From positions 64,001 through 128,000 of IMG/VR virus record IMGVR_UViG_3300013104_000002: DNA of 64,000 nucleotides. One strand, 5' to 3'. This document shows, piece after piece, positions 3,259 through 63,698 of this stretch. Under the pieces are notes generated by a model that saw nothing but the letters and a program-made list of their open reading frames with translations, was not told the origin of the DNA and searched no databases. Origin of the DNA: a virus. Within the stretch, counting starts at the first letter, position 1; each line of letters begins with the position of its first letter. The position numbers and the translations under genes were made by a program.

Positions 3259-3600
3259 TTACCATTCATTTTGAGTCCATGAAAATGGCTCATTAGTAGT
3301 GTAATAATTATTGGTAATATCTCTGTACTTTGTTTGAACTGTTTTTAAGTCAACGATTTCTATATTATCATCGTCTAAAGCTCCTCTGAGTTTTTTATCA
3401 AAAAATTCCTGTACTTCACAGTTGTCATTTCTGAGCGTTTCTATTAAAAGATTAATACCTTTTATCTTACTTTTACTTACTTTTCCACCCATTCTGAAGT
3501 GATTATAGTTAAACATTTTATCTGCTTGTTTTAAAGACTTTTTTTCTAAGTCATAAAGTAAAGACTGCTGTGTTATTTTATTTACTTGTAGCGTTCCCAT
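3259..3600 (-). CDS. Hypothetical (putative virion) protein
   Basis: 113 aa ORF, tightly packed in the late operon. Confidence 0.6.
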   Translation of the reverse strand: MGTLQVNKITQQSLLYDLEKKSLKQADKMFNYNHFRMGGKVSKSKIKGINLLIETLRNDNCEVQEFFDKKLRGALDDDNIEIVDLKTVQTKYRDITNNYYTTNEPFSWTQNEW

Positions 3601-30447: not shown

Positions 30448-30479
30448 TTTGCATAATTAAAATAAAAGTATTATATTTG
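30448..30479 (+). promoter_or_regulatory. Bacteroidota promoter driving the non-coding region
   Basis: TTTG-N20-TATATTTG. Confidence 0.8.
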
Positions 30480-30485
30480 CAGTAT

Positions 30486-30980
30486 AAAGATTGAGAAAAT
30501 AAAGTGTGGCTCTTATAGATTAGTTGCGGGTTGATCAGTGTTCCGCGTAAAAAATTAACGAGTCGGCGCAAGTTTAGCTTAGAAATAAGTTCCAAGTATC
30601 ACGAAGGCTGGATTAAATAAACTAAAAAACTCTAACCATAATCAATTTTTAACAGAAACAGAAGTTGCCCCAAAATAAATATTCGTAACGTTAAATCGTA
30701 ATAGGCGCACGAAGGAGTTATTCCGCGATATTTATCTTCTGTTTTTATTATTTTGCGCGAAATCTAAAAAATATAAAGATCAAGCAGTTGTATATATTTC
30801 AGAATTAGGATCGTAATTACGCAACTTAAAATAAGTAATTCAAAGAAGACTATGAGTTTTTGACGGTTGAGCCTTTAAAACTGTTCCCTTCCTGCCGATG
30901 AGAATGGCTTATTTGGGTTAAAATAATAAAATAACGTATAGAAAGTAAGGGAGTGAAAAGCTTGAAAGTAGCTCCCTTTT
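30486..30980 (+). ncRNA. Cluster of putative structured RNAs (about three units)
   Basis: ~500 nt with no credible ORF and locally higher GC; nested stems AAAGATTGA/TCAATTTTT, GGCTC/GAGTC, GCGG/CCGC, GCTTA-gaaa-TAAGT, AAACAGAAG/CTTCTGTTT, ACGGTT/AACTGT and AAGGGAGT/GCTCCCTT. Confidence 0.6.
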
Positions 30981-62336: not shown

Positions 62337-63075
62337 AATAGACTTACCTAAAAAATATAATTACGAAGAAGGGTCTTCCAGACCAGAATATAAAAAATAT
62401 AGTGGTTGGAATAAAGTATCTTATAGTCAGATTACAAGTTTTCTGAGTGATGAGTACAAAGGTGATTACTTTATGGGGTACTTTGTAGGTAAAAGAGATG
62501 ATGGAAACATATTCAGTTTTTTTGGTAGCGGTTGTGGTGACTACTTAAATCGAAAAGATCAGCGAGTAGATGAATACCTATCAGAAGATTGTAAAAAGAT
62601 TTTAGACTCAATTCAACAACCAGATAATGCTGATTATGAATATGAGATTTTAATTGATTTAGAGCCTTTTGGATTAGAAAAAACTGTTTTGCAGGGGTTT
62701 TCAGATATTCAGTACGAAATTGCCCCTAAAGTCCTAGAATTAGCAGATTACAAAACTTTGAACCTTGATAAGAAAAAAGAATTCTATGAATCAGATGACT
62801 ATCAACAGTTGAATACTTATGGATTTGGATTAGAAGAATTAGGGTTTACTATTAATAAAAGTTCTGTTTTTGGTTTAGGAAGAAAAGGAAATACTTTAGA
62901 TAAAACTAAATTTAGTTCTGCTGGAAATCCTTTATGGCTTAGATTAAGTGGAGAAGTTGAGGAAATTGACAGACCTTATAATAGAGAAGAAGCAAAGAAA
63001 TATGTTCAAAAAATTGCTGACACTTGTGTAAAGATAAATGAATATTTTAAAGTTTTTAATAAACACTTTAACTAA
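62326..63075 (+). CDS. PD-(D/E)XK exonuclease (RecB/Cas4-like)
   Basis: SYSQI, YE, GFSD, ADYKT, QL.TY. Confidence 0.85.
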   Translation: MSIKIDLPKKYNYEEGSSRPEYKKYSGWNKVSYSQITSFLSDEYKGDYFMGYFVGKRDDGNIFSFFGSGCGDYLNRKDQRVDEYLSEDCKKILDSIQQPDNADYEYEILIDLEPFGLEKTVLQGFSDIQYEIAPKVLELADYKTLNLDKKKEFYESDDYQQLNTYGFGLEELGFTINKSSVFGLGRKGNTLDKTKFSSAGNPLWLRLSGEVEEIDRPYNREEAKKYVQKIADTCVKINEYFKVFNKHFN

Positions 63076-63079
63076 TTTC

Positions 63080-63110
63080 TTGCATAATTAAAATAAAGGT
63101 TGTAGATTTG
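63080..63110 (+). promoter_or_regulatory. Bacteroidota promoter for the RNA genes
   Basis: TTG-N20-TAGATTTG; nearly identical to the promoter at 30448. Confidence 0.75.
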
Positions 63111-63119
63111 CAGTATTAA

Positions 63120-63244
63120 GTTGAGATGGTGGAATTAGTAGACACTATATTGAATAAAATCCATTGGTATGACAGGTATGCCTATTTAATATGAAAATGT
63201 GAATAATAGTAGCATTTATGTAGGTTCAAGTCCTACTCTTGACT
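63120..63244 (+). tRNA. Non-canonical tRNA-Leu-like RNA (125 nt, expanded anticodon arm)
   Basis: Acceptor GTTGAGA/TCTTGAC; D-arm GTG-gaattagtaga-CAC; T-arm GTAGG-TTCAAGT-CCTAC; long variable arm; no encoded CCA. Confidence 0.65.
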
Positions 63245-63277
63245 TATTCTTTTTTTGCGCGAAAATATTAACAATAC

Positions 63278-63372
63278 AACAAAGAGTACTGAATACAACT
63301 TAATAGCGCCATTATCCTTAGGGAGTGAATCAGTGATATAATCGTGGGTAAAATTATCAATAACTCTTTGTT
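63278..63372 (+). ncRNA. Putative three-way-junction RNA
   Basis: AACAAAGAGT/ACTCTTTGTT closing stem; ACTGA/TCAGT and TGAT..TAAT/ATTATCA inner stems. Confidence 0.5.
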
Positions 63373-63698
63373 TAACTTTAAAATACTAACATGAAAGAGT
63401 ATATTAGAAAAACTATAAATGTAGATAAAGATTCTATTCATTTAAAAGAGATTATGAAAACAGAGTATGAACCTGGATTTGATCCACATGATTCTTTTTC
63501 GTATGATATTTTTGCAGGAATAAAAGTAACTTATAAAGAATAAATTATGAACGATTTAAAATACTTTTTAATAACTATTTGTGTAGTAATTACATTGATA
63601 GTTTTAGGTACAGATTTTGAACATTATTTAAAATCCGCCGAAAAACAAAAAGAATTAGAGATAAAAAGATTAGAATTATTAATTAAATTGAAGAAATA

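Follow-up and report, generated by a model that had tools for sequence, protein, structure and literature searches.

We have found, in an uncultured and putatively crAss-related phage, a 125-nt element built on the frame of a class-II tRNA-Leu and carrying a greatly lengthened anticodon arm. We propose, at a probability of about one half, that it encodes a stable, non-decoding small RNA on a tRNA scaffold, derived from a class-II tRNA-Leu and belonging to a class of phage elements, here called shell RNAs, in which a leucine-type frame surrounds a variable middle. The window, the whole 64,000-nt stretch analysed, covers bases 64001-128000 of a virus record. That record is complete at 146,490 bp, has a G+C content of 30% and carries direct terminal repeats of 123 bp.

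Architecture of the element

The element occupies window positions 63120-63244 on the + strand and was read, by eye and from the minimum free energy (MFE) fold, as a cloverleaf of class II in which the acceptor, D, T and variable arms are all intact (Table 1). Its three junctions all have the spacing of a class-II tRNA, 15 of 15 modelled base pairs of the shell are intact in a genome of 30% GC, and U8, A14, A15, G19, U48 and the T-loop are retained. In the D-loop, A (63137) takes the position of tRNA G18. The non-tRNA middle measures 74 nt (63146-63219) and still resembles an arm followed by a variable arm, and the element gives the impression of a tRNA-Leu with an extended anticodon arm, not of one in which that arm was exchanged. 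The first-pass annotation had described a 7-bp acceptor, U8, a Leu-type D-arm, a T-arm and a long variable arm, with a 10-bp helix, a 9-nt bulge and a 5-bp hairpin with CAG at its loop centre where the anticodon arm should be, and had remarked on AG for GG in the D-loop and on the missing U33 and CCA. The shell features are present at the coordinates it gave, the sequence and the MFE fold bear out the rebuilt arm, and the three departures can all be read directly in the sequence.

Table 1. Coordinates of the element, its promoter and its 3' flank (window numbering)
Feature	Position	Strand	Detail
Bacteroidota-type promoter TTGCATAATTAAAATAAAGGTTG-TAGATTTG	63080-63110	+	-33 TTG, -7 TAnnTTTG; TTG-N20-TAGATTTG
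Acceptor stem	GTTGAGA 63120-63126 / TCTTGAC 63237-63243	+	7 bp, 2 of them G-U
U8 and G9	63127; 63128	+	
Leu-type D-arm GTG-GAATTAGTAGA-CAC	63129-63145	+	3-bp D-stem
Position 26	63146	+	T; one base, unpaired
Elongated anticodon arm (46 nt)	63147-63192	+	helix, bulge and hairpin; MFE -8.7 kcal/mol
10-bp AU-rich helix	63147-63156 / 63183-63192	+	
9-nt bulge AAATCCATT	63157-63165	+	RNA: AAAUCCAUU
5-bp hairpin GGTAT-GACAGGT-ATGCC	63166-63182	+	RNA: GGUAU-GACAGGU-AUGCC
Linker, 2 nt	63193-63194	+	
Enlarged variable arm AAATG/CATTT	63195-63217	+	5-6 bp, 11-13-nt loop
A and U48	63218-63219	+	directly 3' of the variable arm
T-arm GTAGG-TTCAAGT-CCTAC	63220-63236	+	perfect arm
Discriminator T (U73)	63244	+	no CCA after it
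U-rich tract, GCGCG core and A-tract spacer TATTCTTTTTTTGCGCGAAAAT (TATTCTTTTTTT-GCGCG-AAAAT)	63245-63266	+	candidate 3' boundary or terminator
Second foldable module, closing stem ACAAAGAGT/ACTCTTTGT	63278-63372	+	9-10-bp closing stem; followed by ATG 63391

Running tRNA finders and Infernal, as had been suggested at first pass, gave a mixed outcome. With default settings ARAGORN reported no tRNA gene in the window or in the whole 146-kb genome, and no tmRNA anywhere in the genome. The Rfam tRNA model (RF00005) aligned all 71 of its 71 positions to the element at 27.9 bits, 1.1 bits under its gathering score of 29 bits, treating 65 nt as an insertion, with an E-value of 1e-3 in a 601-nt stretch and of 6.7e-5 in the whole genome. 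The remaining families of Rfam 15, including tmRNA, YrlA and other tRNA mimics, gave no match to the element. An ordinary tRNA is ruled out, as ARAGORN finds none and the Rfam score lies below the cut-off. The full-length alignment to RF00005 nevertheless makes the shell more than a chance resemblance.

The earlier argument that preserved pairing in every arm speaks for selection holds for the shell and fails for the insert, whose AU-rich helices are at the level of shuffled sequence. Dinucleotide shuffling gave z-scores of -0.89 for the whole element, -1.30 for the long arm (63147-63192), -1.37 for the variable arm and -0.99 for the whole insert, and 10-18% of shuffles folded at least as stably as the native sequence. 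The fold of the insert is no better than that of the shuffles and is not statistically exceptional. Because the z-scores of the insert reach only -0.9 to -1.4, the inference from pairing to selection is limited to the tRNA frame.

A class of tRNA-Leu shells with variable middles

To place the element among other phage RNAs, IMG/VR was scanned for a Leu D-loop and a T-loop lying 50-80 nt apart (about 36 nt in a normal tRNA-Leu), with a pattern derived from the element's own D and T loops that permitted A at position 18. At least 113 IMG/VR contigs match, and nearly all are of one build; a few of the matches are genuine tRNAs with unusual features. Among the matches listed there are 94 unique copies, with a 7-bp acceptor in 78, U8-G9 in all 94 and a 5-bp T-stem in 91. 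Of these copies, 71 have A and 9 have U as discriminator, and the 3' tail is CAA in 38, the commonest tail after discriminator A, and CCA in 10. G18 is present in all 113 matches listed although the pattern allowed A, and a separate scan for the A18 form yielded only 2 shell-like copies. U48 is at least 90% conserved in a 62-copy alignment.

The middles of these 94 unique copies among the matches listed are 47-76 nt long and unrelated from copy to copy, and 50 of them have a two-hairpin layout, as in our element. Roughly one third of the copies among the matches listed share an identical acceptor, AGTCAGG/CCTGACT, despite their unrelated middles. Shell RNAs are frequently located among phage tRNA genes; they measure 98-127 nt and score 31-49 bits with the Rfam tRNA model. 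A full-text literature search found no description of the class.

A covariance model (R1) was built from 62 non-redundant shell RNAs with the shell structure only. It aligned to the element over its full length at 60.3 bits (E 3e-16), a score that is partly circular, as the training set was chosen via the element's loops, and that shows membership of the frame rather than independent significance. T5 RNA1 scored 53.0 bits, also full-length, canonical tRNA-Leu genes 38-57 bits and T4 rnaC 23.9 bits; R1 does not discriminate between shell RNAs and true tRNA-Leu, and AT-rich inserts gain from its A-rich unstructured columns. The element is the only shell RNA in its genome, which is also without a canonical tRNA.

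Our element has the constant frame of the class, its 74-nt middle lies within the 47-76 nt of the copies listed and it is encoded by a phage; it lacks the consensus G18G19 and discriminator A. In common with the class (L008-L120) are the 7-bp acceptor, the UG that follows it, a D-arm of the GGAAUUGGUAGAC type, U48 and the GGUUCRANUCC T-arm. Most members carry G18, A73 and a CAA or CCA tail, many with the acceptor AGUCAGG/CCUGACU, whereas the element has A18, U73, an AU-rich acceptor with 2 G-U pairs and an unusually tRNA-like five-arm layout. A blastn-short comparison of its insert with other shell inserts, on 1.3 Mb of fetched loci, returned only 14-nt chance words. The element is, judged by its sequence, a divergent, atypical and so far orphan member of the shell-RNA class.

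Set against a canonical class-II tRNA-Leu, the element has the same acceptor, D, variable and T arms, junction spacing, U8, A14, A15, G19, U48 and T-loop, and differs in its 46-nt arm in place of 17 nt, in A18 and U73, in lacking U33 and CCA, and in its sub-threshold score. The nearest named counterpart is T5 RNA1 (AY543070.1 30501-30644), also phage-encoded, with an acceptor-type closing stem, U8-G9, a canonical T-arm and a Leu-type D-arm (CCGGAATTGGTAGACGG) that matches the D-arm type of the element. As in the element, a non-tRNA middle (about 85 nt) stands in place of the anticodon and variable arms, the discriminator is U and CCA is not encoded. T5 RNA1 lies within a coliphage tRNA gene cluster and has G18G19 and a 1-72 mismatch, whereas the element has A18 and is solitary, behind a Bacteroidota-type promoter in a tRNA-less phage; the two inserts are unrelated. 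T5 RNA1 is annotated in GenBank as misc_RNA, 'tRNA-like stable RNA with unknown functions', whereas the RNA of the element is a predicted one; T5 RNA1 is the one, older annotated example of the otherwise uncatalogued shell-RNA class. T4 species 1 RNA (rnaC, AF158101.6 70908-71046) is likewise a small stable phage RNA beside tRNA genes, with a canonical T-arm (CCGGG-TTCGAAT-CCCGG) and a CAA-type tail. However, it lacks a Leu-type D-arm, forms only about 5 of 7 acceptor pairs, and at 23.9 bits it is an analogue rather than a member of the class.

Three other kinds of tRNA-related element were seen in the course of this work. Outside the window (G000:C1:6577-6635; L002:1501-1559), an 85-nt intergenic gap holds a minimal tRNA-like element with acceptor GGAGGAA/TTTCTCC, T-arm GCAGG-TTCGATT-CCTGC and discriminator A, in which a 26-nt linker replaces the D and anticodon arms (Rfam tRNA 23.4 bits). 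In a phage tRNA-Leu ending in ACCA (L051:6617-6730), the anticodon stem TCAGA/TCTGA surrounds an inserted hairpin of about 32 nt, without which the loop would read CTTAAAA, a Leu UAA loop. The insertion site is that of the cyanobacterial group I intron, and the insert is far too small for a group I intron. Lastly, class-II tRNAs with a Leu-type D-arm, G73-CCA and a very long variable arm (L035, L047, L073, L100 and L105, also L068) carry the loop CTGTTAA or CTGTTTA, which places anticodon GUU (Asn) on a Leu/Ser-type body; these may be recoding tRNAs.

Promoter, 3' motif and cassette slot

The element sits in a gene-free stretch of 315 nt, from a stop at 63075 to an ATG at 63391, among tightly packed + strand genes with phage replication genes adjacent. 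Its neighbours encode a DNA methyltransferase, an HNH endonuclease, a DnaQ-type exonuclease (PF00929) and two further exonuclease-like proteins. The promoter motif ends 9 nt upstream of the element, and transcription would start at about 63112-63115, giving a leader of 5-8 nt before G1. The + strand has about ten near-identical TTG-N17-21-TAnnTTTG sites in the interval from 87 to 146 kb, and in most cases an ATG follows 20-30 nt downstream. The relatives L121, L133, L135, L138, L141 and L142 also keep the motif at this junction. A twin at window 30449-30479 precedes another non-coding array, and TTGCATAATTAAAATAAA..TA.ATTTGCAGTAT.AAG.TTGAGA is common to both copies; the similarity reaches about 15 nt into the transcripts (CAGTAT(A/T)AAG(A)TTGAGA) and into the 5' strand of the acceptor. 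The predicted promoter is well supported by this recurrence of the motif. The first-pass annotation had credited the RNA with its own promoter: the motif is real and credible, but it is not private, as it belongs to a class of about ten sites usually found before genes and is kept by relatives that have no such RNA.

Work on the related cultured phage phi14:2 offers a parallel. Its middle and late promoters are served by host RNA polymerase, its non-coding transcripts are abundant and the host-polymerase middle promoters often lie upstream of tRNA genes; the promoter motif precedes a tRNA gene at least once in 12 of 14 crAss-like genomes (preprint 10.1101/2020.03.07.982082).

At the 3' side, the motif of T-tract, S-CGCG core and A-tract separates the element from the second foldable module (63278-63372), which has an MFE of -16.9 kcal/mol and a z-score of -1.22 that is not significant. 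The same motif follows a module of the 30.7-kb array (30745-30766), occurs in L121 at about 3290-3320, closes the slot in both L121 and L133, and has some 15-20 occurrences on the + strand of the genome, with others on the - strand. Termination, RNA processing and protein binding are all candidate roles for it; a terminator scan called no canonical intrinsic terminator after the element.

About 20 related loci were gathered from IMG/VR and JGI metagenomes via three upstream proteins. The element is at the junction in none of these roughly 20 relatives, and the closest whose junctions were read (79% and 78% identity in the neighbouring protein) are without it. Matched by protein, the closest relatives are P0002 (88%), P0003 (80%) and P0004 (78%). 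In L121/L007 (79% in the adjacent protein) the promoter and the T-run/CCGCG/A-run are kept, with only a 4-bp hairpin and a U-run between them. The slot of L133/L003 holds an unrelated RNA of about 140 nt closed by AGAACAGA/TCTGTTCT and a U-run, that of L135 another unrelated RNA closed by AATAGATTG/CAATCTATT and a U-run, and in other relatives the promoter runs straight into a gene. Because relatives are either empty or hold unrelated RNAs at the same promoter, the site behaves as a cassette slot, made up of a promoter, a closing stem and U-tract around variable cargo, and a CG-core motif. The tRNA-shaped RNA is what fills that slot in the present lineage.

Searches for an orthologue elsewhere returned none: not by BLAST in 50,697 phage records, not among the matches listed from the IMG/VR pattern scans and not in scans of GTDB genomes. 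R1, run on the whole records of five relatives, gave only 17-20-bit matches and no orthologue. Some of those matches are acceptor-plus-T-arm RNAs beside tRNA-Met. Among them, L003:9721-9867 and L139:4386-4485 are long tRNA-like RNAs with a 6-7-bp acceptor, a canonical T-arm and an ACAA tail, without a Leu-type D-arm (17-20 bits on R1), and they adjoin a tRNA gene. GTDB genomes with the identical tRNA-Leu D-arm and T-arm gave 5 matches, none annotated as Bacteroidota, and thus no clue to the host.

The absence of the element from all relatives found is one of several observations that fit a decaying relic, once a tRNA-Leu or shell-RNA gene, now without function and still folding by chance. The departures from the shell consensus, A18 for a near-universal G18 and U73, could mean decay, and the lack of CCA, the score under the Rfam cut-off, the shuffle-level stability of the insert and a CAG-type loop that would be useless where CUG makes up 2.9% of Leu codons point the same way. 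However, all 15 shell pairs, U8, A14, A15, G19, U48 and the T-loop have stayed intact at 30% GC, the class-II junction spacing is exact, and in this compact genome the element immediately follows a promoter that is conserved and of active type. Dead sequence is removable here, since the slot of the nearest relative has shrunk to 94 nt. We regard the relic as a doubtful explanation, if one to be taken seriously.

The slot could also act in cis. The tRNA shape would then be punctuation for RNase P or termination, tuning transcription into the block of small genes that begins at ATG 63391. The promoter class normally abuts genes, and no convincing second promoter was seen before 63391. The contents of L121 (a 4-bp hairpin and U-run) and of L133 and L135 (RNAs with a long-range closing stem and U-run) show that what the slots share is a closing stem and U-tract between promoter and genes. 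Yet a 4-bp hairpin suffices in a relative, so that punctuation by itself would not call for a 125-nt tRNA shape; the acceptor makes a weak terminator stem, and the scan called no terminator. We think a purely cis-acting leader unlikely, and a cis role and a trans-acting one are not mutually exclusive.

Decoding, charging and possible roles

Whatever its role, the element is a non-decoding RNA and not a decoding tRNA. Its anticodon arm measures 46 nt against 17 nt in a canonical tRNA, and the loop GACAGGU has GA, not UU, at positions 32-33, which puts A at position 33. The absence of U33 and the 10 extra base pairs leave it unable to decode; the added pairs place the loop some 30 Å beyond its proper distance from the elbow. 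The central CAG of that loop, read at first pass as a Leu anticodon, is present, but its meaning is weak: U33 is absent, 10 bp and a bulge set the triplet off from its normal place, and CUG is rare, at 2.9% of the Leu codons of the phage genome. The initial description of a tRNA-Leu-derived gene with a rebuilt, elongated anticodon arm, and not a normal tRNA, stands, and 'tRNA mimic' was the right general category.

Decoding could be rescued if the extra 29-36 nt were excised as an intron, and ARAGORN with its intron option (-i) does propose a tRNA with a 31-nt intron at 63152-63182. That sole solution is Asn(att), a senseless AUU anticodon on a Leu-type body, and none of the alternative excisions tried by hand gives U33 with a Leu anticodon. 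L051, the tRNA-Leu(UAA)-like gene in IMG/VR, does resemble a true tRNA with an anticodon-loop insertion of about 32 nt; however, group I and other intron families of Rfam gave no match to our element even at E up to 10, and U73 and A18 speak against charging of any spliced product. We consider a spliced, decoding tRNA scarcely credible, and the earlier suggestion of a tRNA carrying a small insertion falls with it, as neither ARAGORN -i nor manual excision restores a sensible anticodon loop.

Leucine identity in E. coli rests on A73, A15-U48, G18G19, A20a and D/T-loop contacts, and the anticodon and variable arms are dispensable for leucylation, a minimal tRNA-Leu without both still being charged (review PMC9976931). 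The shell class keeps this identity set in its consensus, so that charging or binding by LeuRS is a fair hypothesis for its members. The element itself keeps A15, G19 and U48 and has U73 and A18 in place of A73 and G18. These two replacements break the bacterial leucine identity set (PMC9976931), and the LeuRS substrate proposed at first pass is disfavoured on their account; LeuRS probably does not leucylate the element.

A decoy or bait is a further candidate role, in which the RNA would titrate a host factor such as a tRNA-cleaving defence nuclease, a modification enzyme or a CCA-adding enzyme. The elbow and the acceptor/T stack are intact, and the loop GACAGGU presumably has CAGGU in common with the UUCAGGU loop of E. 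coli tRNA-Leu(CAG). In T5-like phages, phage tRNAs are reported to counter tRNA-targeting defences (preprint 10.1101/2023.03.15.532788). The likeness of the loops ends at positions 32-33, GA rather than UU; 10 bp and a bulge separate the loop from its usual position, A18 weakens the elbow, and no defence or partner gene is found among the neighbours examined. Additionally, a Leu anticodon at a loop centre arises by chance about 9% of the time and was here picked post hoc. A decoy as such seems improbable to us.

The idea can be sharpened into a purpose-made mimic, for which a tRNA-Leu body would have been acquired into the promoter-driven slot of a tRNA-less putative crAss-related phage, its top half recruiting host tRNA-handling machinery while the tRNA-Leu(CAG)-like loop or the AAAUCCAUU bulge baits a tRNA-targeting factor. 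This more specific scenario also seems to us unlikely. If it were true, the shell-RNA class would be a modular phage toolkit of tRNA-scaffolded effector RNAs.

We prefer the stable, non-decoding small RNA, for which we infer the processing and stability steps, and the partner, as follows. Host RNA polymerase would start at about 63112-63115, and RNase P would remove the short leader at G1, for which the needed 12-bp acceptor/T stack and elbow are present in the sequence. Termination, or trimming at the U-tract, would set the 3' end. The compact tRNA-shaped body would stabilise the RNA, and the lineage-specific lower half would be displayed as the working part and bind a partner. A search of the phage's own genome for antisense targets of the bulge and loops found only chance-level 7-9-mers. 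Ponchon and Dardel reportedly engineered a tRNA scaffold in which a cargo RNA replaces the anticodon arm and the chimera is processed and protected by the cell. That scaffold is man-made; by analogy, the shell of the phage RNA may protect its cargo.

These findings have implications beyond one phage. Tools for finding tRNAs, and Rfam thresholds, silently pass over the shell-RNA class, and because they miss shell RNAs, censuses of phage tRNAs undercount tRNA-derived genes. The shell frame retains the nucleotides that LeuRS needs and drops the parts that are dispensable (PMC9976931), which makes hypotheses of charging, scaffolding and decoy action testable. Our element is a natural variant for this purpose, with two identity nucleotides missing and a solitary position downstream of a defined promoter. 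The top half of a leucine tRNA, without its anticodon, has been kept by very different phages, including T5, uncultured phages of freshwater, gut and marine origin and now a tRNA-less putative crAss-related phage.
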